Assembly (NCBI GenBank): GCA_002753335.1
Contig: PEAD01000004.1
Coordinates: 114,746 to 134,745 of the forward strand
Length of the DNA: 20,000 bases
Direction: 5' to 3'
Source of the DNA: Nitrospirae bacterium MYbin3
GTDB lineage: Bacteria > Nitrospirota > Thermodesulfovibrionia > Thermodesulfovibrionales > Dissulfurispiraceae
Made by a program: the position numbers and the translations under genes. The notes under the pieces were generated by a model, which was not told where the DNA came from, searched no databases, and saw only the letters and a program-made list of their open reading frames with translations. Each line of letters opens with the position of its first letter. Position 1 is the first letter of the stretch. Positions 790 to 15,330 of this stretch are shown here, piece by piece.

Positions 790-2429
790 ACAGCAACCAT
801 AAGCTCACCCTAAAAGAGCTTCCATATATAATCCGCTGGCGCGACGACAGGTGCAAACGCTGCGGCAGATGTACTGCGGTGTGTCCTGTAAAAGCGATCG
901 CCCCGGCAGTAAGAGTGCAGCGCTCTGTGCGCTCAGAAGGCGCAGTTCCCACACCGACAGCAAAAAGGACGATAGTGCATGTAGTGGAACAGGTTGCGGA
1001 TATAGAAAAATACTGCACCGGCTGCGGAACCTGCAGCCTTGTCTGCCCAAACGAAGCCATAGAACCGGAATACAATCCTAATAATAAATTCCTTCATTTT
1101 AAAAACAAAGGCGGCGACGCCTACAAAAGAGGCGGCAGAAGAAACGACCCGCTGGTCTCAACGCTGGACAAACTCAAGTTTACAAGAATATCTATGCTTA
1201 CAGACCCTGCTCTTGATGCTGGCAGGCATGAGTTCAGAGTAAGGACACTTCTCGGCAGGGTTCTACCTCCGGAAGAAATGCCGCTGACCCTCGTTAACGG
1301 AGAGCTTGTTGTGGATAAAAACAGCGGGAAGTTCATTCCTCCTGTGCGCGAGATTTATCCGATAATGATAGGCAGCATGTCGGTCGGCGCGCTTTCGCCT
1401 CCGATGTGGGAAGGGCTCGCAATGGGCATCTCATATCTGAACGAGGTTGAGGGCATGCCTGTTGTGATGTGCTCGGGCGAAGGCGGAATGCCGCCGAGAC
1501 TTCTTAGATCAAAGTATCTTAAATATTTCATCATACAGATCGCGTCGGGCTATTTCGGCTGGGACGAAATAATCCATTCGCTTCCGCACATGGTCGAAGA
1601 CCCGGCAGCCATAGAGATAAAATACGGACAGGGTGCAAAGCCGGGAGACGGCGGACTGCTTATGGCGCAAAAAGTGCTTAAGCTCATATCCGGAATCCGC
1701 GGTGTGCCGCAGTTTGTGGATTTGGCATCGCCACCTACGCACCAGACCAAATACTCGATCGAAGAAGCGGTTGCCAAGATGATACAGTCCATGTCTATGG
1801 CATGGGGCTTCAGGGTTCCGGTCTATCCGAAAATTTCGGGCACAAAAACAGCAAAGGCTGTTCTGAACAACCTTGCCAGAAACCCTTATGCAGCGGCGCT
1901 TTCGATTGACGGAGAAGACGGCGGAACAGGCGCGGCCTATAATGTTTCTATGGACAAGATGGGACATCCGATAGCATCAAACCTGCGCGAATGCTACCTT
2001 GACCTAGTAAAGCAGGGCAAGCAGAACGAACTTCCTCTAATCGCGGCAGGCGGTGTGGGCAAAAAAGGGAATCTCGCTGCTAATGCGGCGGCGCTCATAA
2101 TGCTCGGCGCATCTGCGGTATCGATCGGGAAATACATAATGCAGGCGGCGGCTGATTGCTTAGGCGACGAGCACAACCGCTGCAACCTCTGCAATACAGG
2201 CAAATGTCCGCGCGGCATAACCACTCAGGATTCGAAACTTTACAGAAGGCTTGACAGCGACAAAGTGGCCGAGCGGGTAGTAGAAGTGTTCAAGTCCGCA
2301 GACGTTGAGCTTAAAAAAATATTCGCTCCTATGGGTAGAAGCACCGAACTGCCTATAGGCATGTCAGACGGCCTGAGTATTGACGACAAGGCCATAGCGG
2401 AAAGGTTGGGTATAAGCTATGCCTGCTAA
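768..2429 (+). CDS. gltB: Glutamate synthase FMN-binding subunit with N-terminal 2x[4Fe-4S] ferredoxin domain (GltB2-like)
   Basis: SD AAGGAGGT at 754-761. Two CxxCxxCxxxCP motifs, MSVGALS, SGEGG, QIASGYFG, EIKYGQGAKPGDGG, DGEDGGTGAA, and the C-terminal Fe-S motif CNLCNTGKCPRGITTQD. Confidence 0.9.
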   Translation: MESAARLDSNHKLTLKELPYIIRWRDDRCKRCGRCTAVCPVKAIAPAVRVQRSVRSEGAVPTPTAKRTIVHVVEQVADIEKYCTGCGTCSLVCPNEAIEPEYNPNNKFLHFKNKGGDAYKRGGRRNDPLVSTLDKLKFTRISMLTDPALDAGRHEFRVRTLLGRVLPPEEMPLTLVNGELVVDKNSGKFIPPVREIYPIMIGSMSVGALSPPMWEGLAMGISYLNEVEGMPVVMCSGEGGMPPRLLRSKYLKYFIIQIASGYFGWDEIIHSLPHMVEDPAAIEIKYGQGAKPGDGGLLMAQKVLKLISGIRGVPQFVDLASPPTHQTKYSIEEAVAKMIQSMSMAWGFRVPVYPKISGTKTAKAVLNNLARNPYAAALSIDGEDGGTGAAYNVSMDKMGHPIASNLRECYLDLVKQGKQNELPLIAAGGVGKKGNLAANAAALIMLGASAVSIGKYIMQAAADCLGDEHNRCNLCNTGKCPRGITTQDSKLYRRLDSDKVAERVVEVFKSADVELKKIFAPMGRSTELPIGMSDGLSIDDKAIAERLGISYAC

Positions 2430-4827
2430 GAAAAAACAAGTCAGAAGTCAAAAAGCGGCAGTGAAAACTAAAAAGAAAGAAGAACAGATTATAGAGATAA
2501 CTGGAACAAAGGCTGTTATTCGCGGAAATGTCAACGGCAGCAGAGTGCCGTCTCGCATACTTGAAGAGCATATTCAACTGGCTGTGCAGGAAGGCGCAAG
2601 AGAGCTTCACATTCAGGCTGCCGGACAGCACGGGATAGGCGGAAGAATATGGCCTAAAGATGAAACCGTAAAATTTTATGTTGAAGGCCCTGCAGGGCAG
2701 AGGCTCGGAAGCATGGGCATGCCCGGAACCGAGATTATACTGAAGAACAGCGCTTCGGACGATGTGGGCTGGATAAACTGCGGGGCAAAGATAACAGTTT
2801 TGGGAGATGTCACAAACGGCGCCTTCAACGCGGCAGCTCAGGGAACCCTTTATGTTCAGGGCGGCGGCGGCGCAAGATGCGAAACAATGACAAAAAGAAA
2901 CCCTCGCTTTGAACCGCCTCAGTCATGGTATTTCAGAAACGTGGGCGATTCTTTCGCTGAGTTCAAAGCTGGTGGCATCGCGGTTGTATGCGGTGTTGAT
3001 TCTAGAAACCCCGAAAATATCCTCGGTTATCGTCCTTGCGTCGGAATGGTCGGCGGCACAATATATTTCAGGGGACCGATTCAGGGCTACAGCGAGCGCG
3101 ACGTAAAACTGCTCGAACTCACTCCTCAGGATTGGGAATGGCTCACAACTAATATGAAGCCGTACCTCGAAGCAATAGACAGAATGTCCTATTACAAAGA
3201 GCTTACACGCTCCATGGACGACTGGAAGAAGCTCATAGCATACACGCCGCAGGAAAAAGCAAAGAAAAAACCTTTAAAGATAAGCGCGACAGAGTTCAGG
3301 AAGAACCACTGGGAAAAGGCTGTAGGCCAAGGCGGTATATTTGCAGAATACCTTGACCATGACCTGACTGTGCTTCCATATATCACGACCGGCAAATTCA
3401 GAAGAAACAAGCCGGTATGGGCGAATGAAAAATATGCACCCCCCTGCGCTTACGCCTGTCCGACATATATACCGTCGCACAAACGAGCAACGCTTATCAG
3501 GGAAGGCAAGCTGAATGAGGCGCTCGAACTTGTGCTTCAGTACAGCCCGCTTCCTGCAACGGTTTGCGGAGAGATATGCCCCAACCTCTGCATGAATAGC
3601 TGCACGAGAGGTCAGCTCGACAGGCCCCTTGCGATAGACAAATTAGGAAAGCTCTCGTTAGATATGCCCGCCCCTAAAAAAGCAGCAGCAACAAACCATA
3701 AAATCGCCGTAATCGGAGGCGGCCCCGGCGGCATGAGCGCTGCGTGGCAGTTGGCGATAAAAGGACACACCGTAAATCTTTACGAGGCATCAGCCAAACT
3801 CGGAGGCAAGCTCGAACTCTGCATCCCGCATGAGAGGTTGCCTAGAGAAATTATAGACAAAGAAACCGAAAGGTTCCGGCAGCTAGGAATTAATCTTCAT
3901 CTGAACACAAAGGTCACAAAAGAGCTGTTCGATAAAATATACAAAGACCATGAAGTGGTTGTTCTTGCCTGCGGCGCGCACCAGCCAAGAAAGGTTTCGT
4001 TCCCCGGCTCGGACGAGATAGCTTCAGCTTACGAGTTCCTCAGAGACATAAACCTCGGCAAACACCCGGATTTAAAGGGCAAGAAGGTTGTAATTATCGG
4101 GGCAGGTAATGTGGGCATGGATGTCGCATCAGAAGCGTACAACTACGGCGCCGAATCTGTGACTGCGGTGGATATTCAGAAACCGGCCGCCTTCGGCAAA
4201 GAGATGGATATAGCAAAGGCAAAGGGCACACAGATAGCTTGGCCTAAATTCACAGACAGGTTCGACAAAAAAGAAAGAAAGATCATCTTTAAAGATGGAT
4301 CATTCCTCGATGCGGATGTGGTGATAATGTCGATAGGCGATGTGCCGCAGCTCGATTTTCTTCCGGCAAGTGTGCATAGCGAGCGCGGCTGGCTGACTGT
4401 AAATGACGAATTCCAGACCTCCGACGTAAAGGTTTATGCGATAGGCGATGTCACTGGACTCGGACTTGTAACGCATGCTATCGGACATGGGCGATTGATG
4501 GCCGAAAACATACATTATCAGTTGATGCACGCGCCGAGACAGCCCGAAGCAAAACAGGTTGTGCCCTACGAAAAAATAAAGACCGAATACTACGAGGCCT
4601 GCAAAACAGCCTTTACTCCACAGGAAGAAGGCAACAGATGCATGTCCTGCGCAACTTGCCGCGATTGCCATATGTGCGAAGTCAGTTGCTATTGGGGGGC
4701 AATAACCCGCAATGATCTCGGCAACGGCAGGTACGAGTATGTTACTGACGATGAGAAATGCATCGGCTGCGGCTTCTGCGCCGGAATCTGTCCTTGCGGT
4801 GTTTGGGAGATGACAGAGAATATTTAA
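2419..4827 (+). CDS. gltD: Fusion of GltB C-terminal GXGXG beta-helix domain + GltD-like FAD/NAD(P)H oxidoreductase + C-terminal 4Fe-4S dicluster
   Basis: N-terminal GQHGIGG/GQRLG/GDSFAEFKAGG/GMVGG repeats (GXGXG domain). PPCAYACP and CGEICPNLCMNSC Fe-S motifs, Rossmann motifs GGGPGG and GAGNVG, YAIGD, and C-terminal CxxCxxCxxC and CIGCGFCAGICP. Confidence 0.88.
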   Translation: MPAKKKQVRSQKAAVKTKKKEEQIIEITGTKAVIRGNVNGSRVPSRILEEHIQLAVQEGARELHIQAAGQHGIGGRIWPKDETVKFYVEGPAGQRLGSMGMPGTEIILKNSASDDVGWINCGAKITVLGDVTNGAFNAAAQGTLYVQGGGGARCETMTKRNPRFEPPQSWYFRNVGDSFAEFKAGGIAVVCGVDSRNPENILGYRPCVGMVGGTIYFRGPIQGYSERDVKLLELTPQDWEWLTTNMKPYLEAIDRMSYYKELTRSMDDWKKLIAYTPQEKAKKKPLKISATEFRKNHWEKAVGQGGIFAEYLDHDLTVLPYITTGKFRRNKPVWANEKYAPPCAYACPTYIPSHKRATLIREGKLNEALELVLQYSPLPATVCGEICPNLCMNSCTRGQLDRPLAIDKLGKLSLDMPAPKKAAATNHKIAVIGGGPGGMSAAWQLAIKGHTVNLYEASAKLGGKLELCIPHERLPREIIDKETERFRQLGINLHLNTKVTKELFDKIYKDHEVVVLACGAHQPRKVSFPGSDEIASAYEFLRDINLGKHPDLKGKKVVIIGAGNVGMDVASEAYNYGAESVTAVDIQKPAAFGKEMDIAKAKGTQIAWPKFTDRFDKKERKIIFKDGSFLDADVVIMSIGDVPQLDFLPASVHSERGWLTVNDEFQTSDVKVYAIGDVTGLGLVTHAIGHGRLMAENIHYQLMHAPRQPEAKQVVPYEKIKTEYYEACKTAFTPQEEGNRCMSCATCRDCHMCEVSCYWGAITRNDLGNGRYEYVTDDEKCIGCGFCAGICPCGVWEMTENI

Positions 4828-4848
4828 TTTTAAAGCGATTTGATTTTA

Positions 4849-4890
4849 AATGGGCGGTGAATTGGATATTCACCGCCCATTGTTTATTAT
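4849..4890 (+). terminator. 14-bp perfect hairpin after the glt operon (likely intrinsic terminator, also downstream of the displaced tRNA 3' end on the minus strand)
   Basis: AATGGGCGGTGAAT (4849-4862), loop TGGAT, ATTCACCGCCCATT (4868-4881), followed by GTTTATTAT. The U-tract is imperfect. Confidence 0.7.
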
Positions 4891-4922
4891 GGTGCCGGTG
4901 GGGAGGGTCGAACTCCCACGAG
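4889..4922 (-). repeat. att site: 34-bp exact duplicate of the tRNA-Leu 3' end
   Basis: ATGGTGCCGGTGGGGAGGGTCGAACTCCCACGAG at 4889-4922 is identical to 6055-6088. Confidence 0.95.
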
Positions 4923-5165
4923 AGAGGTGTCCGGGTTTGTTTGGATACTTTGAAACGATTTTTAAGTGGTAAACTGCTCTGCCTCATGCCGCTACCTCTA
5001 TCTTCGGTAGTGTAGTCCAGTAAATCTCATTCGGCGTTCTGCCGTCAAGTCCTTGATGCCGTCGCCGACTGTTGTAAAACTCAAAATAAGTTGCAAGCCC
5101 AATTCTGGCCTCTGATATAGAAACATAAGCCTTTAGATAAATATCTTCGTACTTCACACTACGCG
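4923..5165 (-). pseudogene. IS3-family transposase C-terminal fragment plus probable right terminal repeat
   Basis: RSVKYEDIYLKAY...EARIGLATYFEFYNSRRRHQGLDGRTPNEIY is the IS3 OrfB C-terminal signature (stop at 4984). There is no DDE core upstream. The sequence 4923-4949 (AGAGGTGTCCGGGTTTGTTTGGATAC) resembles an IS3-type end. Confidence 0.8.
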
Positions 5166-5169
5166 AAGT

Positions 5170-6005
5170 AACAGAAAGTCTCTCGACCGCGCTGAACTTA
5201 GTGTTGATCATTTAAAACTATGCTTTGCGGGATGGCGACAAATGAAATAACAACAAATAATATTAACAAATACATCGACAACAGGCAGAAAAATGGGGCA
5301 AATGCCACAATAAACCGTGAACTTGCTGCACTCAAAAGGATGTTTTCTATAGGTTTTAACCAGACACCACACAAAATAATACGAATTCCTTCTTTAACTG
5401 AACACAATGTTCGCACAGGCTATTTTGAGCATCATGAATATCTTAAAATGTGTGATGTTTTGCCTAGCCATATTAAACCGGTATTTATTATGGGTTATCG
5501 CACAGGTATGAGGATTTCAGAAATTCTTTCTCTTAATTGGGAAACAGTAAATATATTTGATCGGAGGATAACGTTGGTGAATACAAAAAATAATGAGCCA
5601 CGGATTATACCTCTTGTTGGGGAATTGTTTGATACGATTCTGAAGCAGAAGGTTCTCTGTGATAGTAGTTATTCAAAATTTCCATATGTTTTTTCCAGAA
5701 ATCGAAAGCAGATTAAAGATTTCCGAGGGGTTTGGAACGCTGCATTTGAGAAAGCCGCGATAGAGCGCAAATTGTTTCATGACTTGAGGAGGACTGCTGT
5801 TAGAAATATGGTAAGGGCTGGGGTTGCTGAGAAGGTGTCAATGCAAATCTCAGGACACAAAACCCGTGATGTTTTTGAGCGATACCATATTGTAAACGAA
5901 GATGATTTGAAGCTTGCTTTTCAAAAAGTTGACAGCATGCATGCTGAAACTGAAAAAGCTGTTGAGAAAGAAAACAGCGGGCACAAAACAGGCACAATCG
6001 GATAA
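5170..6005 (+). pseudogene. Tyrosine recombinase/phage-type integrase, N-terminally truncated, with probable frameshift near 5224-5226
   Basis: Catalytic residues are present: TGMRISE (R), TKNNE (K), FHDLRR (HxxR), SGHKT (H), FERY (Y); also ATINREL. Integrase-like NRKSLDRAELSVDHLKLCF is encoded in another frame at 5170-5226, upstream of the 5220 ORF. The arm-binding N-terminal domain is absent. Confidence 0.85.
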
Positions 6006-6055
6006 AGGAGGAAATTTATGAAAAAAACAAAACAAGCCAAGTCTCTGTTTTTCAA

Positions 6056-6142
6056 TGGTGCCGGTGGGGAGGGTCGAACTCCCACGAGGTTGCCCTCACC
6101 GGATTTTGAGTCCGGCGCGTCTGCCAGTTCCACCACACCGGC
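6056..6142 (-). tRNA. tRNA-Leu(CAA)
   Basis: Minus strand GCCGGTG...CACCGGC-A-CCA acceptor stem, anticodon arm CCGGA-CT-CAA-AA-TCCGG, long variable arm, T arm GGGAG-TTCGACC-CTCCC. CCA is encoded. Confidence 0.97.
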
Positions 6143-6292
6143 TGTGGAAATTATCTTAGAGCATCAACGAGTTGCAGAATATTGTAGCCTATCACAAAGT
6201 ATTCGTTAGTGTCAAAACTAGCGGTATGCTTTAATCTCTGACAATGCTTATTAATCAAAAACGTACTTGACAAGAATCAAAAACTTACTTGC

Positions 6293-6321
6293 TTGACAAG
6301 AAAATAATTTTGTTTTATCGT
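6293..6321 (+). promoter_or_regulatory. Sigma70-type promoter for the yeiH-rhodanese unit
   Basis: TTGACA (6293-6298), 17-bp spacer, TATCGT (6316-6321). Confidence 0.65.
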
Positions 6322-6409
6322 TTTAGTCAAAGGGGGTTAGCTGTAACGTTTAATAATTTTTACACATCCATTAAAGCTGGAAAAAAATACTATTGCGGAG
6401 GTGTTTTAT

Positions 6410-7942
6410 ATGGCCCCAAAAGGAAGTAGCCTGTCGGATTTGTGGAAAAATGAGGACTGGCTTGCTGTCTGGATAGGTTTTTTCATAATCGCTATGGTAC
6501 TCATTTTTAACCAGTGGAGCATAATAGACTTAAAAAAGGTGTCGCCCGGGCACAAATGGGCAACTGATGGTCAGATAGCCTCGCGTGTTGAAAAATGGAA
6601 TGCCGCTATAGACCCTCTAATGAAAGATGCCGAGGCAAAAGGTGAACAGGGAGCTGTGGTGCGCTTGCAGGGCTTGAAAGAGACATTGCAGAAAGGCGAT
6701 AGGAAATCGATTGCTGAAGCTGCAGGCAGAGTTGAGCGTATGGGCGGATTGGTTGGTGAGCTTGGCAAGGAGGTTGGTGCACACGCAAAGGCAGAGCCGG
6801 CTAAGCTATTTACTGCTGACAATCTAACAAGAGGTTTTAAAATATGCGTGGCTTTTATGATTATAGCTACGATTGGCCTCAAGATGATGGGTAGTGTGAA
6901 CCTAGGCAAGTTTGTTTTAGGTTTCCCAATTGTATTTATTCTTGCATGGCTTGCCCGTTTAATTGCAGGCAATGCAGCTCCGGGTGATTGGGGCATAGAA
7001 TATGTGGTATTTTCACTTGCAATAGGCCTGATACTCAGCAATCTCATAGGGCTTCCAGCATGGCTTATGGAGGCTGTGAGAACCGAATATTACATCAAAT
7101 CAGGGCTTGTTATTCTTGGCGCCGGGCTTCTTTTTTTCGAGATATTGCAGGCTGGCGCGCTTGGTATAATGCAGGCCATAGGTGTAGTTTTTGTGGTGTG
7201 GTATGCCTGTTATTGGCTTGCAAAGAAGCTTAAGGTTGATGATGAATTTGCGGTTATGCTGTCAAGCGCAGTGTCGATATGCGGAGTTTCAGCCGCAATC
7301 GCAACATGCGGAGCAATTGAGGGCGACAAGAAAAAACTGTCTTATGTTACTTCACTCGTTCTGATAGTGGCTGTGCCTATGATGGTGATAATGCCTTGGG
7401 CTGTAAAGGCCTTTGGAATTCCGGATATAGTCGGCGGGGCATGGCTGGGCGGCACGCTCGATACGAGCGGTTCTGTTGTTGCTGCAGGCGCGCTGATAAG
7501 CGAGGCTGCGATGAAAACAGGGGTTATCGTTAAGTTTTCGCAAAATGCGCTCATCGGTGTTGCTGCATTTATACTTTCGATATGGTGGACATGCAAAAAA
7601 GGAGCTGAATGCGGCGAAAAGCCTACTGCTCGTATAATATGGGATCGTTTCCCCAAATTCGTGCTTGGCTTTATAGTCGCTTCGGTCTTTTTCTCTTTCT
7701 TTCTGCATATAGATACGGTAAACGCCACTAAAAGTCTTCTCGGAGACTTAAGGACATGGTGGTTCGCACTTGCTTTCGTATCTATCGGCCTCGAAACGCG
7801 CTTTGTAGATATAGCTAAGATGGAGGGCGGCAGGCCCGCACTGGCCTTTATTGCTGCGCAGACGTTTAATGTTATATGGACTCTGATTTTAGCGTACATA
7901 CTGTTTGGAGGGTATATATTCCCGGTGCCTGATATAAAATAA
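6410..7942 (+). CDS. yeiH: YeiH/PSE-family (putative sulfate exporter) membrane transporter, long form
   Basis: SD GGAGGTG at 6397-6403 favours ATG 6410 over GTG 6401. Motifs EDWLAVWIG, EYYIKSGLVILGA, SICGVSAAIA, GAWLGGTLDTSGSVVAAG, VKFSQN, RFPKFVLGF and LAFVSIGLET, with many transmembrane segments. Confidence 0.88.
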   Translation: MAPKGSSLSDLWKNEDWLAVWIGFFIIAMVLIFNQWSIIDLKKVSPGHKWATDGQIASRVEKWNAAIDPLMKDAEAKGEQGAVVRLQGLKETLQKGDRKSIAEAAGRVERMGGLVGELGKEVGAHAKAEPAKLFTADNLTRGFKICVAFMIIATIGLKMMGSVNLGKFVLGFPIVFILAWLARLIAGNAAPGDWGIEYVVFSLAIGLILSNLIGLPAWLMEAVRTEYYIKSGLVILGAGLLFFEILQAGALGIMQAIGVVFVVWYACYWLAKKLKVDDEFAVMLSSAVSICGVSAAIATCGAIEGDKKKLSYVTSLVLIVAVPMMVIMPWAVKAFGIPDIVGGAWLGGTLDTSGSVVAAGALISEAAMKTGVIVKFSQNALIGVAAFILSIWWTCKKGAECGEKPTARIIWDRFPKFVLGFIVASVFFSFFLHIDTVNATKSLLGDLRTWWFALAFVSIGLETRFVDIAKMEGGRPALAFIAAQTFNVIWTLILAYILFGGYIFPVPDIK

Positions 7943-7994
7943 CAGGACCCCGGCAGAAAAAAATAAATACTATCTGGAAGGAGGTGAACTATCG

Positions 7995-8495
7995 ATGAGT
8001 AAACGTTTAATCGCTTTTGTTGTGGTTGTTTTCTTCATCGCAAGCGGCAGTATAGTTTTGGCTCAACAGTACTCTGCCAATGCTATGAAAAAAATCGAAG
8101 AGCTTAAGATTATGAGCAGAGATAAAAAAGATATGCCCGAGAGCATGCCTGGAGTCAAAAAGATCACTGCTGAAGAGCTAAAGAAATGGCTAGAAACAAA
8201 CAAGAAGTTTGTGTTTCTCGACAACAGAGTGCCTGCTGATTTTGAAAAGGAACGGATTGCTAAGGCTGTTCGGCTTTCTCCGGATGACCTGCTTGAAAAA
8301 GGGCCTAAAGCAGCAGAACAACTCGGGCTTAAAAAAGACGATACGATTGTCTTTTACTGAAACGGCATTAAATGCTGGAGGTCTTCCGGCGCAATAATTC
8401 TGCTTCAGGATCTTGGGTATAAAAACATTTACTGGTATCGCGAAGGTATTCCGGATTGGATAAAGAAAGGCTATCCGACTACCGAGGGCAAATAA
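7995..8495 (+). CDS. Exported single-domain rhodanese/sulfurtransferase, predicted selenoprotein (Sec at TGA 8358-8360; 166 aa with readthrough)
   Basis: SD GGAGGTGA and signal peptide MSKRLIAFVVVVFFIASGSIVLA. Rhodanese N-half (ITAEELKKWL..FLDNR..DFEKERIAKA). After TGA the same frame continues NGIKCWRSSGAIILLQDLGYKNIYWYREGIPDWIKKGYP to TAA 8493-8495, completing the fold. The TGA sits at the catalytic Cys position (IVFY-U-NG). Confidence 0.88.
8373..8391 (+). promoter_or_regulatory. Putative bacterial SECIS element
   Basis: Stem GCUGGA (8374-8379) / UCCGGC (8385-8390), with one U-G wobble, and apical loop GGUCU (8380-8384) starting 20 nt after the UGA. Confidence 0.75.
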
Positions 8496-8511
8496 GCAGC
8501 AATCGGAATCG

Positions 8512-8562
8512 CATAAGAGGGGTATGTCTTACACACATACCCCTCTTATGTATCTATTTTTT
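8512..8562 (+). terminator. Intrinsic terminator after the rhodanese gene
   Basis: 16-bp perfect stem CATAAGAGGGGTATGT (8512-8527) / ACATACCCCTCTTATG (8535-8550), 7-nt loop, then TATCTATTTTTT. Confidence 0.8.
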
Positions 8563-8622
8563 ATTTGCGAGGGAGACGATGTTTTTGATTGAGAATTATA
8601 TAATGATAAGACAGGAACAGGC

Positions 8623-9366
8623 ATGGATTTAGGAATACTCGGCACTATAACTCTTGACTGGAATTTTGCATCGGCATTATTCAGCATAATTATTATAGAC
8701 CTGATTCTTGCAGGCGATAATGCTGTTGTAATCGCTATGGCGGTGCGCTCTCTGCCCCATGAACAGCGAAAGAAAGGCATACTTTTTGGTGCCGGAGCCG
8801 CGGTGTTGTTGAGAGTTATTCTGACCTTTTTTGTTGCTCAATTGCTTCAGGTAAGCTTTATCAAGCTTGTCGGAGGCATTTTGATAACATGGATCGCGGT
8901 GAAACTTTTTATGGAAGGCGTGCCGGATGAGAGTATTGACAAAGAAGCCACAACCATCGGGCAGGCTATTAAGCTGATTGTTATCGCGGATATAACGATG
9001 GCTACAGACAACATGCTTGCTGTGGGCGGGGCTTCGCAAGGCAACCTTTTTCTTTTGTTGTTTGGACTAGGGCTCAGCATTCCGTTTGTCGTATTCACAA
9101 GCAACCTGCTTTCTATGCTTATGGATAAATATCCGGCGATAATATATATAGGCGCTGCAATTCTCGGTAAGGTGGGCGGAGAGATGATAATTACGGACCC
9201 TTTTACCGAAAGACTGCTGGCTCCGGGCAAGGCTACTATTTATATGGTTGAAGCTGTTTTTGCAGCAGGAGTTATCGTTACCGGAAAACTTTTGCTTAAG
9301 TGGAAAATTGTAAGGGCTGCGAAAAAAGAACATATCCATGATGCTGATAAGCCGGAGGAGGATTAA
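8623..9366 (+). CDS. terC: TerC-family (YjbE-like) integral membrane protein
   Basis: IIIIDLILAGDNAVVIAMA, GAGAAVLLR, IVIADITMATDNMLAVGGA and FGLGLSIP are TerC signature motifs. Confidence 0.9.
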   Translation: MDLGILGTITLDWNFASALFSIIIIDLILAGDNAVVIAMAVRSLPHEQRKKGILFGAGAAVLLRVILTFFVAQLLQVSFIKLVGGILITWIAVKLFMEGVPDESIDKEATTIGQAIKLIVIADITMATDNMLAVGGASQGNLFLLLFGLGLSIPFVVFTSNLLSMLMDKYPAIIYIGAAILGKVGGEMIITDPFTERLLAPGKATIYMVEAVFAAGVIVTGKLLLKWKIVRAAKKEHIHDADKPEED

Positions 9367-10169
9367 TGGCTATTTTAACCATATCGAGAGAGATCGGAAG
9401 CGGCGGGCGTGAAATAGGATATAAAATTGCCGACCTCATGGGATACGAGCTTATAACCAAAGAAAGGCTTCTTTCAGATATTAAAGAGTGGGGCGCTAAA
9501 TGGGAAAACTGGGGAAAGATTCTGGATGAGCACCATCCCACAGTATGGGAAAAATACGACTGGTCTTTTAAAGGTTTTTGTGCACTTATGCAAAACCAGA
9601 TGCTGCAATACGCATTAAAAGACAAAGTTGTCTTGTTGGGAAGAGGCGGCAACTTTCTGTTTAACGACATACCTTATGCTCTCAGAATACGCATAATTGC
9701 GCCTGTAAAATATCGAGCAGAAAGAATAATGAAGCGTGATTCTGTTGATATAGAGACGGCCCGATGGATTATAGAAAAAACCGACAAGGAAAGGTCGGGG
9801 TTTATCAGAGCCCTTTACGGAGAAGATTTGAATGCTCTGTCCGAATATGATATTACATTCGATACAAGCACGCGTCCGCTTGAAGGGATAATAGCTTCGG
9901 TTAAAGCTGCGCTAGCAGACAAAGAAAGGTTTAATACACCTAATAACTGTGAAAAACTGCGCCTGCACGCACTCGCTGCAAAGATAAAGGCGGTGATACT
10001 TACGGATCCGACATTCTTTATTCCCACGCTTGATATTGACGATGACGGAGAAGGCTTGATTCTTAAGGGCGTGATACACAATCCGAAAGAACACAAGCGC
10101 ATCGAAGATACTGTGCAAAAACTGGCCGGAGATACAAAGGTTAGGTGCAAACTCCATTACAGGAGTTAA
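9366..10169 (+). CDS. Cytidylate-kinase-like family protein with C-terminal BON-like domain
   Basis: ILTISREIGSGGREIG, VLLGRGG, LRIRIIAP, DKERSGF and YDITFDT match the Cytidylate_kin2-type family. The C-terminal ~70 aa (LAAKIKAVIL...LILKGVI...LAGDTKVRCKL) resembles BON. Start overlaps the terC stop (TAATG). Confidence 0.75.
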   Translation: MAILTISREIGSGGREIGYKIADLMGYELITKERLLSDIKEWGAKWENWGKILDEHHPTVWEKYDWSFKGFCALMQNQMLQYALKDKVVLLGRGGNFLFNDIPYALRIRIIAPVKYRAERIMKRDSVDIETARWIIEKTDKERSGFIRALYGEDLNALSEYDITFDTSTRPLEGIIASVKAALADKERFNTPNNCEKLRLHALAAKIKAVILTDPTFFIPTLDIDDDGEGLILKGVIHNPKEHKRIEDTVQKLAGDTKVRCKLHYRS

Positions 10170-10173
10170 GTTT

Positions 10174-10689
10174 TTATCCGTTTTTTTCGATTGCGCGCAG
10201 TATCCCATTCAATATGGCTGCAGGATTGGGCGGACAGCCTGAAATGAAAACATCAACAGGAATTACCCTATCTACTCCCCCGAGGGAAGCATAGCTTTCT
10301 CCAAAGATGCCGCCGTTGCAGCCGCAATCGCCAACAGCCACCACAAGCTTGGGGGCTGGGGTTGCATTGTAAGTCCTCTTTAACGCTACCTCCATATTTC
10401 TTGATACCGGGCCGGTTACAAGAAGCATATCAGCAAAGCGGGGCGATGCGGTGAATTGAACGCCGAAGCGCTCGCAATCATATATAGGGTTGTTTATCGC
10501 ATGTATTTCAAGTTCACAGCCATTGCAGGAGCCTGCATCCACTTCCCTAATGGTAAGGCTCCCGCGAAAATATTTCTTTACAGCTTCTTCCAGTTTTGCG
10601 CCGACAACTGTTATTTCATCTTTAACCACCTTAGGCAGCGGCTCAGTAACAATGCCGGTTCTGAATATCTGATGCAATATTCTCATCAT
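10174..10689 (-). CDS. hyfI: Ehr/hydrogenase-4-like small Fe-S subunit (NuoB/HycG/HyfI family)
   Basis: DAGSCNGCELE, ASPRFADMLLVTG, AVGDCG and GCPP supply four Cys ligands for one [4Fe-4S] cluster. Confidence 0.9.
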   Translation of the reverse strand: MMRILHQIFRTGIVTEPLPKVVKDEITVVGAKLEEAVKKYFRGSLTIREVDAGSCNGCELEIHAINNPIYDCERFGVQFTASPRFADMLLVTGPVSRNMEVALKRTYNATPAPKLVVAVGDCGCNGGIFGESYASLGGVDRVIPVDVFISGCPPNPAAILNGILRAIEKNG

Positions 10690-12251
10690 AGGTCATGCCC
10701 CGAATACGATTGATTGAAACTTTTGTTGCACAACGGGAAGTCGGGGACAATGTTTCCGGGAATCGCCTGTTCGAGTCCCAACCAATTAAGGCTGGAGGGG
10801 TCTCGAACCATGCAGCGGTTTATTTCGCCTTTAATGCCGGCCTGAACCCAATAGATAATTTCGCCTCGCCAACCTTCAACTGCAGCAAACCCGGAGGTGT
10901 CGGAAGCTGGGCGGCCAATAGCAATAGAAATTTCTCCTTCAGGGATATTTTCAAGGATAAAGCGGATAATACGAATCGACTCTCTTATCTCTTCCACCCT
11001 AACCCATGCACGCGCATGCACGTCTCCTGAAATAAGCACAGGCACTTTTATCTCAAAACGGTCATACGGAGGGAATGGATTCTGGAGCCTGCAGTCAAGG
11101 TTTAATCCGCTTGCACGGGCGACTATGCCCACAGCACATAGACTCCTCGCTTTTTCAGGACTAAGCTCACCCGCATCCCTTACCCTATCTTCTAGCGATG
11201 CGCTTTCATCATAAATAGTTGCGAGTTTTTCAAATTCGGCGGATAGAATATCAAGCTCTGCTTTTATTTCTTCTTTGCCTTTTTCGTCTATATCAACAGT
11301 TACTCCGCCAGGAAGCACTCTGTCCATAATGAACCTATGTCCAAAAAGCTTTAGGTTTGTGCGAACGAGCATCTCCTTAAGTCTTGTTGTCTGATAGAGC
11401 ATGAATGCAAAGGCCACATCGTTGCAGATTGCGCCTATGTCGCCAAGATGGTTTGCTATGCGCTCTCTTTCAAGGAACAAAGCTCTTAGCCAGTGCGCGC
11501 GCTCAGTAATGACAGCTTGGGTTACAGATTCGACCGCCAGAGAATACGCTATGCTGTGGGCTACGGTGGTATCTCCCGAAACCCGCCCTGCAAGCTTTGC
11601 GCCTTCTTGCCACGAGAGGGATTCAAAGCGCTTTTCTATTCCTTTGTGCACATATCCAAGGCGTTCTTCAAGATTTATTATCATTTCTCCAACAGCCTGA
11701 AAACGGAAATGTCCGGGCTCGATTATTCCTGCATGGACAGGCCCTACCGGTATCTCGTAAACCCCCTCGCCTTCAGCCTTTATCCATTTATACTTTCCAT
11801 TTACATGCGGCAAAGGTTTAGAGGAGGCAAAACTTTTTCTCAAAGGCCATGAGTCTTCGGGCCAATCTTCAAATTTTATCCACGGCCTCAAGTCTGGGTG
11901 TCCTTCAGGAACGAGCCCCATTAAACTATGTATCTGTCGTTCAAAGCGATAAGCGGGTACGAATTTTTTTGTGAGACTCGGAAAGGTCGGATCGTCAATC
12001 GGAATCTCGGTCCTTACAATCAGGTATTCGTTCGCAAAGCGATAGCAGGCATACACCGCAAACCCTCCTCCGAACGGTGTTTCGTCAACAGCCCATTCTG
12101 CGGCAAGCAGTGCATAAGCTTTTTTCATAATTTTTGCCGCGTCAGCAAATCTGTTTCTCGGCACGGTGCAAGAAACCACCGAAGCCGGAAACTGCCGTTT
12201 GTTGTAAGTCGCCGACGTGCCTAAAACATTGTCTATAGCCTCTTTGAGCAT
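10686..12251 (-). CDS. hyfG: Ehr/hydrogenase-4-like large subunit (NuoC+NuoD/HycE/HyfG family) lacking Ni-binding Cys motifs
   Basis: FERQIHSLMG..GHPD, PVGPVHAGIIEPGHFRF, LGYVHKGIEK, ERERIANHLGD, VEGWRGE and RDPS. The L1 motif reads RVSGDTTVAH and the C-terminus reads DFPLCNKSFNQSYSGHDL. Confidence 0.9.
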   Translation of the reverse strand: MLKEAIDNVLGTSATYNKRQFPASVVSCTVPRNRFADAAKIMKKAYALLAAEWAVDETPFGGGFAVYACYRFANEYLIVRTEIPIDDPTFPSLTKKFVPAYRFERQIHSLMGLVPEGHPDLRPWIKFEDWPEDSWPLRKSFASSKPLPHVNGKYKWIKAEGEGVYEIPVGPVHAGIIEPGHFRFQAVGEMIINLEERLGYVHKGIEKRFESLSWQEGAKLAGRVSGDTTVAHSIAYSLAVESVTQAVITERAHWLRALFLERERIANHLGDIGAICNDVAFAFMLYQTTRLKEMLVRTNLKLFGHRFIMDRVLPGGVTVDIDEKGKEEIKAELDILSAEFEKLATIYDESASLEDRVRDAGELSPEKARSLCAVGIVARASGLNLDCRLQNPFPPYDRFEIKVPVLISGDVHARAWVRVEEIRESIRIIRFILENIPEGEISIAIGRPASDTSGFAAVEGWRGEIIYWVQAGIKGEINRCMVRDPSSLNWLGLEQAIPGNIVPDFPLCNKSFNQSYSGHDL

Positions 12252-12253
12252 CT

Positions 12254-13714
12254 CTATTTAATCAACTCCGCTGCGGTGATAAACCACTTGCTTAAAAAAT
12301 CGGGCAGATAAATCCCGATTGCGAGCACTATCGCCATATGAAGCATAACCGGAACATGAGCCGCTTTAAGCGGTTTCTGGTAGTCAGGAATCTCTCCCGA
12401 AACCATCGCCTGCACCTTTCTGAATATGGCCGCAAACGCCACTCCAAGCCCCAAGAGAAGAAAGGGTGTCATAAGGGGAGCGCTTTTCATTGTTGCTGTA
12501 AGAATAAGAAACTCGCTGGTAAAGACTCCGAAAGGAGGCATTCCGACAATAGCCATAGCGCCGAACATAAGCCCCCAGCCCACAAGGGGATTGCCTTTGA
12601 AAAGGCCTTTTATCCTGTCCATTTCCTGAGTGCGGTGCATTTGAGAGGCATGACCTACAGTAAAAAATATTGCAGACTTTGCAAGGCTGTGAACAAGCAT
12701 ATGCAGAAGGGCCCCGAAAGTTGCGACCGGCCCGCCGAGCCCGAAGGCGAAGGTTGCGATGCCCATATGCTCTATTGAAGAATATGAAAACATTCGTTTT
12801 ATGTCTTTCTGCCTAAGCAATGAAAAGGCTGCTACTAATATTGAAATTATTCCGAAGCCCATCATTATATTGCCTGCATGATGTGAATGTGTTGCGCCGT
12901 CAACAAGGACTTTGCATCTTACAAGGGCATAAAGCGCGATATTGAGCAGCAGGCCCGAAAGCACCGCCGATATTGGAGTAGGGCCTTCGCTGTGAGCGTC
13001 CGGCAGCCAGTTGTGGAGAGGCACAAGCCCCACCTTTGTACCGTAGCCCACCATCAAAAAGACAAATGCAAGCGAAAGTATTGTGGGTTCAAGTTTGTCG
13101 CTTACAAGGCTCAGATTTGTCCAGAGAAGGGCTTGCCCGCCTTCTCCTAAAACTCTTTCTGCCGCAAAATAAAGAAGCACCGTTCCAAAAAGCGCTTGCG
13201 CTATCCCGACGCCGCAGAGTATAAAATATTTCCAAGCAGCCTCGATTGCTGTGGGAGTTCTGTAAAGTGACACAAGAAGCACTGTGGATAAAGTTGCAAG
13301 CTCCATCGCAATCCATAATACGCCTATATTATTGGTCAGCAGGCAAAGAAGCATCGCAAAGATGAATAGCTGGAACATAGCGTGGTAGAAGCGCATGCCC
13401 CAATGTCCGACCCTTCCGTGCTCCCGCTCTCTCCGCATGTAAGGGCGGCTGAAGATCGCGGTGGTCATAGAAACAAAGGATGTTAGAACCGCGAGATAGA
13501 CGTTGAATGCATCAACAAAAAAGAAGTTTTCACCGGCCAACATAGAACCCTGCTCATATACCTCTAAGGCAAGACCGATGCCTGCCACAAAGGTTGCGGC
13601 AGAGCCGGTGATGTTGACTTCGGGCGCGAACCGCCTGTCTCCCACAAAGGCGAGGACAGCCGCAGCAAAAAGAGGCGTCCCTAGCAGGATAAGCAGTACA
13701 GCGCTGTTTTGCAT
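12254..13714 (-). CDS. hyfF: HyfF-like antiporter-type membrane subunit
   Basis: WIAMELATL, EAAWKYFILC, GYGTKVGLVPLHNWLPDAHSEGPTPISAVLSG and KRMFSYSSIEHMG. Confidence 0.9.
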   Translation of the reverse strand: MQNSAVLLILLGTPLFAAAVLAFVGDRRFAPEVNITGSAATFVAGIGLALEVYEQGSMLAGENFFFVDAFNVYLAVLTSFVSMTTAIFSRPYMRREREHGRVGHWGMRFYHAMFQLFIFAMLLCLLTNNIGVLWIAMELATLSTVLLVSLYRTPTAIEAAWKYFILCGVGIAQALFGTVLLYFAAERVLGEGGQALLWTNLSLVSDKLEPTILSLAFVFLMVGYGTKVGLVPLHNWLPDAHSEGPTPISAVLSGLLLNIALYALVRCKVLVDGATHSHHAGNIMMGFGIISILVAAFSLLRQKDIKRMFSYSSIEHMGIATFAFGLGGPVATFGALLHMLVHSLAKSAIFFTVGHASQMHRTQEMDRIKGLFKGNPLVGWGLMFGAMAIVGMPPFGVFTSEFLILTATMKSAPLMTPFLLLGLGVAFAAIFRKVQAMVSGEIPDYQKPLKAAHVPVMLHMAIVLAIGIYLPDFLSKWFITAAELIK

Positions 13715-13718
13715 TAGC

Positions 13719-14378
13719 TCAACTCTCCTCTTTCAGACGCGCCATTTGGTCTACATCGAGGCTGTCAAAGGTTGTGTGTATCTGAAAGAAAAACATGCCG
13801 AATATAAACGCGGCTATAAGCACATCAAGCGCAACACCTAGCTCAACAACGAGAGGCATGCCATATGTTGTACTTGTGGCAGCGAAGAAAAGGCCGTTTT
13901 CCATCGCAAGAAATCCTATTATTTGTGTAACAGCATGTCTGCGCGTAATCATCATCAAAAGGCCTATCATGACGGTAGCAAGAGCTATCGCAAGGGTCGA
14001 GCGTGTTATAAAAGTGGAGAGTTCTCTCACAGGAGCGGTAAGGTGATAAGAGAATATTACGAGGACGATGCCTATGAGCATTGTTGTAGGTATGTTGACA
14101 ACTGTTTCTACATCTTTGCGATGTTTTAAACGAGCAATAAGGACATGAAGTATATAGGGCAAAAGAATAACTTTTAGAGACAGGGTAAGTATTGACGATA
14201 TGTAAAGGTGGTGTCTGCCGGCCACATAACCAACAATTGCTGTGTTTATCGAAAGGAAAAGCCCCTGCCATGTAAAAAGGTGAATAAGGCTGCTTATCCT
14301 TTTTTGTGAGAGCATGCCAAAAGCTGTAAGAAGCACCAAGGCGGCAAGAAAGCTGTTTATCTGTGTTATGGTTTCCAT
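13719..14378 (-). CDS. hyfE: HyfE-like membrane subunit
   Basis: Hydrophobic 219-aa protein with QIIGFLAMENG and MPLVVELGVALD, located between hyfC and hyfF. Confidence 0.88.
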   Translation of the reverse strand: METITQINSFLAALVLLTAFGMLSQKRISSLIHLFTWQGLFLSINTAIVGYVAGRHHLYISSILTLSLKVILLPYILHVLIARLKHRKDVETVVNIPTTMLIGIVLVIFSYHLTAPVRELSTFITRSTLAIALATVMIGLLMMITRRHAVTQIIGFLAMENGLFFAATSTTYGMPLVVELGVALDVLIAAFIFGMFFFQIHTTFDSLDVDQMARLKEES

Positions 14379-14388
14379 ATTTATAAAA

Positions 14389-15330
14389 TCACTCCAGCAT
14401 AAAAAACGACAACATCCCCAACGTGGCCATTAAAAAAGCCGCCCCAAGAAATTCGGTAAGCCTGAACAGCCGCATCTTGGCAAAACCGGTCTCTATTAAA
14501 ACTATTACAATGCCCGAGAATCCGAGCTTGAGCAGTAAATAAATAAATGCGAGCGAAATACCTGCCGGGGTTGCATAAACAGCAATCCCCATCGGCGCAA
14601 ACAGGGCAACTCCCAATGAAATATAAAGAAATAATTTCATCATTCCGGCCCACTCTATAAGCGCCAAATGTCTTCCTGAGTATTCGAGAATCATCGCTTC
14701 ATGAACCATTGTAAGCTCGAGGTGCGTGGCTGGATTATCGACCGGCACCCTTCCTGTTTCGGCCAAGGTGATAAGGACAAAAGCGATGAAGGCAAAAACC
14801 AAAGAAGGCTTGATTACGCTTGCGGGGCTGTAAATGGTCTCGACGATTCTCGCAAGGGAGGTTGACCCGCAGGATAGTGATACCGTAAATATCGCCATGA
14901 GCATGGCAGGTTCGGCAATGGATGCGATCATCATCTCACGGCTTGAACCCATTCCGCCGAAGGCCGTGCCTATATCCATTCCCGCCAGAGCCGTGAAAAA
15001 ACGTGCGGTGGCGAATAATGCCACCAAAACTATTACATCCGCGGTAAGAGACAGCGGCAGGTCTGTGGACAAGATAGGAATAATAGCGCTGACCATCGCT
15101 CCTGTGCCGAACACCAAATATGGCATGAAACGGAATATCCAAGAGGCGTTTTCTGCCAAAATAATATCTTTCGAAAACAACTTCAGCAGATTTCTGTAGG
15201 GCTGCAATATGCTCGGAGACGAGCGCCCCTGAGACCAGCATTTCAGCATCTTGACCCATCCAGCAAAAATAGGGGCAAGCCCGATTACGAGCGTAATCTG
15301 TAATAGTTCTATAATAAATCCTGCCACCAT
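14389..15330 (-). CDS. hyfC: HyfC/HycD (NuoH-like) membrane subunit
   Basis: QGRSSPSILQPYRNLLKLFSK, GMDIGTAFGGMGSSRE and AETGRVPVDNPATHLELTMVHEAMILEYSG. The true start is probably ATG 15330, overlapping the hyfB stop (TGATG), rather than 15432. Confidence 0.88.
   Translation of the reverse strand: MVAGFIIELLQITLVIGLAPIFAGWVKMLKCWSQGRSSPSILQPYRNLLKLFSKDIILAENASWIFRFMPYLVFGTGAMVSAIIPILSTDLPLSLTADVIVLVALFATARFFTALAGMDIGTAFGGMGSSREMMIASIAEPAMLMAIFTVSLSCGSTSLARIVETIYSPASVIKPSLVFAFIAFVLITLAETGRVPVDNPATHLELTMVHEAMILEYSGRHLALIEWAGMMKLFLYISLGVALFAPMGIAVYATPAGISLAFIYLLLKLGFSGIVIVLIETGFAKMRLFRLTEFLGAAFLMATLGMLSFFMLE

Follow-up and report, generated by a model that had tools for sequence, protein, structure and literature searches.

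The 20,000-nucleotide stretch of DNA analysed here (the window) encodes a small rhodanese whose catalytic residue is very likely selenocysteine (Sec), specified by an in-frame TGA. The gene (positions 7995 to 8495, forward strand), delimited from its open reading frame, a Pfam match and an AlphaFold model, yields a single-domain protein of 166 residues when read through this TGA. Its start codon, ATG 7995, is preceded by a strong ribosome-binding site, AAGGAGGTG (7978 to 7986, forward strand). The frame reaches the TGA as codon 122 (8358 to 8360, forward strand), continues for 44 sense codons and ends with TAA at 8493 to 8495. Translation across the TGA gives IVFY*NGIKCWRSS...GYKNIYWYREGIPDWIKKGYPTTEGK, and alignment with homologues places codon 122 in the rhodanese active-site Cys column, as an earlier note on this DNA had proposed. 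At the level of sequence, what decides for Sec is this Cys/TGA alignment, and not the hairpin downstream alone. The earlier note had also foreseen a mis-annotation, and the public protein collection indeed holds a 121-residue truncation of the product (entry P0013); the annotated protein is very likely cut short at the Sec codon in databases. Taken as a whole, the product is probably a periplasmic Sec rhodanese acting as a sulfurtransferase, which would transfer sulfane sulfur either onto sulfite or away from it, next to a YeiH-type transporter that is probably a sulfite exporter. Judging from the names of the closest homologues, which are mostly Nitrospirota, the host would belong to the Nitrospirota.

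The read-through protein matches the Pfam Rhodanese domain PF00581 over residues 58 to 157 (model positions 1 to 101 of 102; 62.2 bits with a cut-off of 22.2). An AlphaFold model based on 64 sequences, with Cys in place of U122, has a mean pLDDT of 90.1. Residue 122 directly follows the strand formed by residues 118 to 121, and residue 127 is located at the start of the helix spanning residues 128 to 139, which corresponds to the rhodanese active-site loop. Fold searches (Foldseek, VIA) returned rhodanese-fold proteins on top (6MXV, GlpE, RhdA, Sud) and Cdc25 lower, with Z scores of 12 to 14.7 for sulfurtransferases and 10.8 to 11.0 for Cdc25A and As/Sb reductase. The latter matches, and a loop longer than the canonical one, could point to a long-loop phosphatase or arsenate reductase of the Cdc25/ACR2 kind. 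This is very improbable, since these folds rank below the sulfurtransferases and the protein is predicted to be exported and lies in a sulfur neighbourhood. Moreover, phosphatases and arsenate reductases of this kind carry a C-x5-R motif, whereas the Arg of the window's rhodanese stands at C-x6-R and is replaced by Lys in some homologues.

A Sec-pathway signal peptide (7995 to 8063, forward strand) is predicted, with MSKR followed by a hydrophobic core and a V-L-A cleavage site; hydropathy and the A-x-A-like site support it as a prediction. An N-terminal hydrophobic stretch (11-mer) is present in 119 of 121 family proteins. Neither a lipobox nor a Tat motif was found in any of the 121, which rules out export as a lipoprotein or by the Tat route. 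The rhodanese is thus predicted to be periplasmic.

Tyr121, Cys/Sec122, Asn123, Gly124, Cys127, Trp128 and Ser130 are invariant in the 64 aligned proteins. The Cys127 codon (8373 to 8375, forward strand) would provide the second chalcogen of a U-x4-C loop, and is TGC in 17 of 17 TGA forms. The loop is two residues longer than that of 6MXV and contains a second Cys, in place of the six-residue, single-Cys loop of the canonical GlpE/PspE type (PspE model, 23.3 versus 102 bits). Given this lengthening relative to canonical rhodaneses, the protein need not have classical sulfurtransferase activity. Within this loop type the combinations C-x4-C, U-x4-C, C-x4-U and U-x4-U all exist, which argues that both positions do chemistry. 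U122 and C127 may form a selenenylsulfide, an idea that gains support from the invariance of Cys127 (64/64) and from the presence of Sec in the same column in TsoB and in two other rhodaneses of the source genome, C57 and C12.

The loops of Sud and GlpE/PspE are shorter than that of the window's rhodanese. The Sud polysulfide-sulfur transferase from Wolinella succinogenes (PDB 1QXN) and E. coli GlpE/PspE share the single-domain rhodanese fold (Z of 10.7 for Sud and 12.5 for GlpE) but have one Cys and no Sec, with 15 to 24% identity. Sud has an N-terminal helical extension that is linked to its periplasmic location according to PMC10925157.

Homologues with Cys and homologues with TGA at the column were both found, whereas the earlier note had pointed out that a TGA restricted to this gene among Cys-bearing relatives would indicate a simple nonsense mutation. 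Among the 120 listed of 134 protein matches, 65 have Cys at column 122 and 53, known from their protein records and not from their DNA, end exactly before it; the other two are the window's own 121-residue truncation and a protein ending elsewhere, and no other residue was seen. Mis-truncated versions of this rhodanese appear to account for at least 53 public protein clusters. At the DNA level, 64 matches at E 1e-25 or better cover the codon and, after removal of 8 identical contexts, leave 56 distinct sites with TGA in 17, TGC in 25, TGT in 14 and TAA or TAG in none, counts in which Cys is over-sampled by the use of a Cys-containing seed in the collection scans. A TAA flagged at first sight in genome G238 is the terminal stop of that frame. 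A class-wide search gave matches at 58 places in 54 of 390 genomes, 11 of them with TGA; in a sample of another phylum, 3 of 351 genomes matched, 2 of the 3 with TGA.

In a tree built with the site masked, 9 Sec/Cys changes are needed, at least 7 of which are forced by well-supported branches. A single Sec clade is rejected (p-AU 5e-104) and TGA forms lie on several branches, although 12 of the 17 TGA sites belong to one clade. Close natural Sec/Cys pairs are about 70% identical and share the same gene neighbourhood. Over the 40 codons after the TGA, comparison with the window gives pS of 0.58 to 0.86 and pN of 0.08 to 0.20 in 16 of 16 comparisons, indicating purifying selection. It is therefore extremely improbable that the TGA reflects a nonsense mutation, a pseudogene, an assembly error, or a UGA read as Trp or Cys: the same codon is shared by 17 distinct sites from several branches, with TAA or TAG at none, the tail beyond it is constrained, TGA is a normal stop in the source genome, and the column is Cys, never Trp, in the 65 full-length homologues among those listed.

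The source genome (G000; 93.7% complete) encodes the full Sec machinery that the proposal calls for, with selA, selB and selD above curated cut-offs and a tRNA-Sec with anticodon UCA. Its other genes with an in-frame TGA are selD, the rhodaneses C57 and C12, and a MccSep/ExtKL homologue. TGA terminates 455 of 1424 frames of at least 300 codons in this genome and, in the window, the hyfB-, hyfC-, hyfE- and hyfG-like ORFs, the first, second and last of which had been named earlier as ending in a genuine TGA stop. TGA being an ordinary stop in both window and genome, genome-wide recoding is excluded. These ORFs are part of what is presumably, from the gene names, a hyfB/C/E/F/G/I-like membrane complex cluster (10174 to 17384 of the window, reverse strand). 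The hyf-like large subunit has the C-terminus FNQSYSGHDL and no obvious NiFe CxxC motif.

Among family-bearing genomes tested, 57 of 60 have selA whichever codon is used, so that co-occurrence discriminates little; two Burkholderiales genomes lacking selA carry the Cys form. One TGA carrier (G217; assembly 95% complete, in 310 contigs) has selB, but searches for selA and tRNA-Sec gave no match, which either counts mildly against recoding or reflects the fragmented assembly. A possible further selenoprotein of the source genome is located near 91660 of C11 (reverse strand), where a 267-codon frame ends in a TGA, with 44 sense codons and a 9-bp hairpin beyond it (KKIEELTG*CLEKAV).

A predicted bacterial SECIS core, with the stem GCTGGA/TCCGGC and the loop GGTCT, lies downstream of the UGA (8374 to 8390, forward strand; model scan and comparison), the loop beginning at a distance of 19 nt. 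The bSECIS model given in Fig 2A of PMC13188914 has a loop of 3 to 9 nt, G in the first two loop positions, a spacing of 16 to 37, a stem of at least 4 bp and an MFE of -7.5 or below. As assessed with our own script coding that model, and not with bSECISearch, the window's hairpin agrees with it (spacing 19, stem 6 to 7 bp, -10.4 kcal/mol). All 17 TGA sites pass the model, each with spacing 19; so do 22 of the 39 Cys sites, 118 of 500 synonymous shuffles, 36 of 576 ordinary TGA stops and the selD, C57 and C12 TGA sites of the source genome. The 576 stops, which end frames of at least 250 codons, serve as chance background: 71 are followed by at least 44 sense codons, and 6 both have such a tail and pass the model. 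In a stricter helix-only hairpin scan the window's own site fails, and folding of the single sequence gave z of -0.1 to -1.6, without significant stability.

Comparison between forms is more informative. In 11 TGA forms spread over the tree, synonymous codons are identical in 167 of 211 cases in codons +5 to +10 versus 450 of 1021 further downstream (0.79 versus 0.44); in 11 Cys forms the corresponding figures are 97 of 207 in the hairpin and 410 of 928 downstream, and the excess of the TGA type is absent. A fixed 6-bp structure in one register showed no covariation over the 17 TGA sites, because Ser-Ser and Ser-Pro forms pair one base apart. Among the five Ser-Pro forms, whose register is shifted by one base, there is one compensatory, doubly synonymous change from A-U to C-G. 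The hairpin overlaps constrained codons. A SECIS-model hairpin is thus conserved, as expected if the codon is recoded; as read from the sequences, it argues weakly for recoding in a lone sequence and strongly when forms are compared.

Five rhodanese selenoprotein forms are listed in Table 1 of PMC13188914: UxxS, UxxG, CxU, UxxG and UxxxxU. The stand-alone exported U-x4-C form belongs to PF00581 and, from its sequence features, appears to fit none of the five. This rhodanese-type selenoprotein form is absent from that 2026 inventory as tabulated, and no NCBIfam model reaches its cut-off with the window's protein. A motif search of the deep-Sep supplements (PMC12013277) did not find a U-x4-C loop, and the reference sequences of forms 1 to 3 are without it. 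Our literature searches did not find the U-x4-C stand-alone form; BSepDB or Haft and Tolstoy 2025 may already record one. The earlier claim that Sec occupies the catalytic Cys position, Sec-rhodaneses being known, holds as far as recoding is concerned, but its novelty was overrated, form 2 and TsoB having already been listed.

Form 2 (MBM9537886.1, YUAIGGRS) and form 4 (UxxG) also have Sec in place of the catalytic Cys of a PF00581 domain. In form 2, however, the loop is of the canonical short type and lacks a second Cys; the protein shows no evident signal peptide and is extended at length at its C-terminus. The window's loop U-N-G-I differs from UxxG, form 4 being set apart here by its motif in the table of PMC13188914 only. 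Form 3, rhodanese_LYCAU (NF041203; YCAUPNE), is likewise a small single-domain (seleno)rhodanese (E 7.8e-14), but its CxU motif is absent from the window's protein, which reaches 51.4 bits with a cut-off of 115. Form 1 (WP_010941598.1, Geobacter; loop CGGVTUVLS, PMC12013277 supplement) has the same x4 loop with two chalcogens. It is the mirror image of the window's form, with Cys at the catalytic column and Sec at the second position, and its reference protein is multi-domain. Two C-x4-U rhodaneses with an in-frame TGA and a model-passing hairpin are present in the source genome: a small one with a hydrophobic N-terminus (C57, about 52790 to 53180, forward strand) and a multi-domain one resembling the Geobacter form (C12, about 1830 to 3190, forward strand).

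TsoB (NF045694; form 5) is the best NCBIfam match of the window's rhodanese (E 2e-18; 65.8 bits versus a cut-off of 805). Its loop U-A-G-L-T-U-V-R-S aligns gaplessly with U-N-G-I-K-C-W-R-S and is the same, column for column, in 10 of 10 loci examined; NF045694 matches above the cut-off occur at 25 places in 21 of 301 genomes, each with 2 TGA. The two proteins have in common an N-terminal hydrophobic segment and Sec at the first loop position, and are 27 to 43% identical in the matched stretch. TsoB, however, comprises about 570 residues with a membrane/DsbD-like part and two Sec, whereas the window's protein is stand-alone, with 166 residues and one Sec. The rhodanese-like family TIGR03865 (PQQ-dependent catabolism-associated CXXCW protein) also has two Cys and then Trp in its loop (E 1.6e-13), but with a spacing of x3 instead of x4 and a score of 50.9 bits versus a cut-off of 128.05. 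A CXXCW-like loop sequence, RALVFYCRADCWLSW, was found in locus L114, and no PQQ enzyme is among the recurring neighbours of the rhodanese.

The fusion of a U-x4-U domain to a DsbD-like part in TsoB (NF045694) suggests another function for the same selenoprotein, that of a thiol/disulfide-type oxidoreductase on a rhodanese fold, which, supplied by a membrane electron carrier, would cycle through a U122/C127 selenenylsulfide and serve to reduce S-S bonds (in protein disulfides, polysulfide or thiosulfate) without sulfur transfer. The weak match to the two-cysteine CXXCW family and the occurrence of only Cys or Sec, in all four combinations, at positions 122 and 127 agree with such a role, as does a MauE/DoxX-family membrane protein with a CxC motif (DCGC) in 12 of the 17 TGA loci. 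We nevertheless consider it unlikely, since no MauE/DoxX match was found in the 93.7% complete source genome and the constant neighbour is a sulfite-related transporter, often accompanied by a canonical tandem sulfurtransferase.

In the window, this neighbour is a membrane transporter of the YeiH/PSE family (PF03601; probable sulfite exporter) of 513 residues (6401 to 7942, forward strand; Pfam), which ends 52 nt before the rhodanese gene. A terminator-like hairpin of 17 pairs follows the rhodanese gene (8511 to 8551, forward strand; consensus scan, 5 sites versus 3.1 expected). The 52-nt gap and this hairpin suggest that YeiH and the rhodanese constitute a two-gene unit. An Rfam scan of positions 4800 to 10300 found only one tRNA and no riboswitch. 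The window's YeiH is a long form with about 110 extra hydrophilic residues between the first two hydrophobic segments, and scores 73 bits versus the TIGR00698 cut-off of 233. The YeiH family is proposed in PMC11582611 to export sulfite into the periplasm, and PMC12880088 describes YeiH as the main driver of sulfite resistance in Salmonella, transport itself being unproven.

A YeiH gene is present in 15 of the 17 TGA loci, and the other two have less than 200 bases of upstream sequence. Among Cys-form loci, it accompanies 17 of the 22 that are at least 45% identical and 2 of the 17 with lower identity. At least two YeiH subfamilies adjoin the rhodanese gene, of the 60-85% and 26-30% identical types. 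Each of the 13 best YeiH matches in the class directly precedes a small rhodanese gene; the small rhodanese is absent from all of the next 19 long-form YeiH loci, 7 of which have an exported tandem rhodanese upstream of YeiH. This tandem rhodanese was considered as a second selenoprotein and is a Cys form. Long-form YeiH genes are often preceded by genes for an exported tandem rhodanese and for a two-component system. What is newly seen here is the association of TGA rhodanese loci with YeiH-family and MauE/DoxX CxC proteins; the recoding mechanism itself is not new.

In the sulfurtransferase account that we prefer, SelB and tRNA-Sec would very probably read the UGA by means of the hairpin 19 nt downstream. 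The predicted signal peptide would be cleaved after Ala23, and the enzyme would fold in the periplasm. By analogy with the rhodanese family, the Sec122 selenolate would accept sulfur from polysulfide or thiosulfate, hold it in a Se-S adduct and pass it on. With YeiH-exported sulfite as the acceptor, thiosulfate would form, and an intermediate of Dsr/Apr metabolism that is toxic would be cleared. Cys127 may resolve or protect the adduct by forming a selenenylsulfide; in most relatives, the adjacent MauE/DoxX-family CxC membrane protein could re-reduce this bond. The host genome encodes dsrA, dsrD and aprA together with the TGA-bearing MccSep; MccSep is a Sec-dependent polysulfide reductase according to PMC13510729. 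The MccSep/ExtKL multiheme cytochrome homologue with the in-frame TGA (L193) is located on C11 of the source genome at 71223 to 72422 (reverse strand; 538 bits, cut-off 250).

It is conceivable, if rather doubtful, that the two proteins form a selenium-dependent sulfite-capture unit, in which the Sec rhodanese, docked on the periplasmic face of the long-form YeiH, would convert outgoing sulfite directly to thiosulfate (or feed YeiH with sulfite from thiosulfate) by means of a U-x4-C redox loop. Such a unit would be a transporter-coupled selenoenzyme, of a kind not found in the literature searched, and one member of a natural CC/UC/CU/UU series. We modelled the complex with natural Cys forms from one locus (YeiH residues 10 to 516 and rhodanese residues 24 to 166, each with its alignment). 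The docking score was 0.54, versus 0.00 for the best control, with 100% of contacts agreeing between runs and a partner pLDDT of at least 84. In calibration, 116 of 157 solved complexes and 2 of 215 mismatched pairs attained the mark; only 18 of the 157 solved complexes, but both passing mismatches, did so with scores of 0.60 or less. The model thus weakly supports docking of the rhodanese on YeiH, and our guess is that the extra YeiH domain would be the site. Among 5 matches in a search for fused forms, there was no YeiH or MauE fusion, which is weak evidence. The YeiH link provides a concrete hypothesis for a poorly understood transporter and for periplasmic sulfite handling in Dsr-bearing Nitrospirota-type bacteria. 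The Sec/Cys pairs and the four C/U loop combinations lend themselves to a direct test of a long-standing question, namely what selenium contributes to the chemistry of sulfur transfer and in which loop position.

Downstream of the rhodanese gene, profile matches identify a TerC/YjbE-family membrane protein, a frequent neighbour (8623 to 9366, forward strand), and a cytidylate-kinase-like and BON protein that travels with TerC (9366 to 10169, forward strand). The recurrence nearby of TerC/YjbE, a P-type ATPase and a radical SAM metalloenzyme maturase could indicate that the selenoprotein handles selenium, tellurium or metals (selenite/tellurite reduction or Se trafficking) with TerC, in the manner of Geobacter ExtH, a rhodanese that lies in a selenite/tellurite-linked cluster according to PMC5877670. 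This is quite improbable: the window's rhodanese has no ExtH match and one homologue is marginal (E 9e-4), the recurring neighbours include no recognised sel gene, and TerC with the kinase-like/BON protein, or the P-type ATPase, is found after YeiH whether the rhodanese is present or not, as a constant neighbour of YeiH. In the long-form YeiH loci (window and L160 to L178), the partners are TerC with the cytidylate-kinase-like/BON protein (fused in L051 and L087) or a Ca-type P-ATPase.

Several other features were observed in these loci. In one subclade (L150, L151, L153, L154, L157 and L060), a conserved protein of about 200 residues with no Pfam or NCBIfam match is encoded downstream of the rhodanese, and in the L150-type subclade a universal-stress protein is often found upstream. 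The window also contains a phage-integrase-family ORF of 261 residues with an apparently shortened N-terminus (5220 to 6005, forward strand), which adjoins a tRNA-Leu(CAA) (6059 to 6142, reverse strand) and is likely the remnant of an integrated element. Distant Cys paralogues (38 to 43%; L062, L063, L094 to L096, L098 and L099) are flanked by genes for a periplasmic-binding protein on one side and for a methyl-accepting chemotaxis protein (MCP) on the other, most of them in cheA/cheW/cheZ clusters. MCP-rhodanese fusions with a CNGIKCW loop exist as well (proteins P0125 and P0126), which suggests that chemotaxis may use this loop to sense sulfur or redox state.
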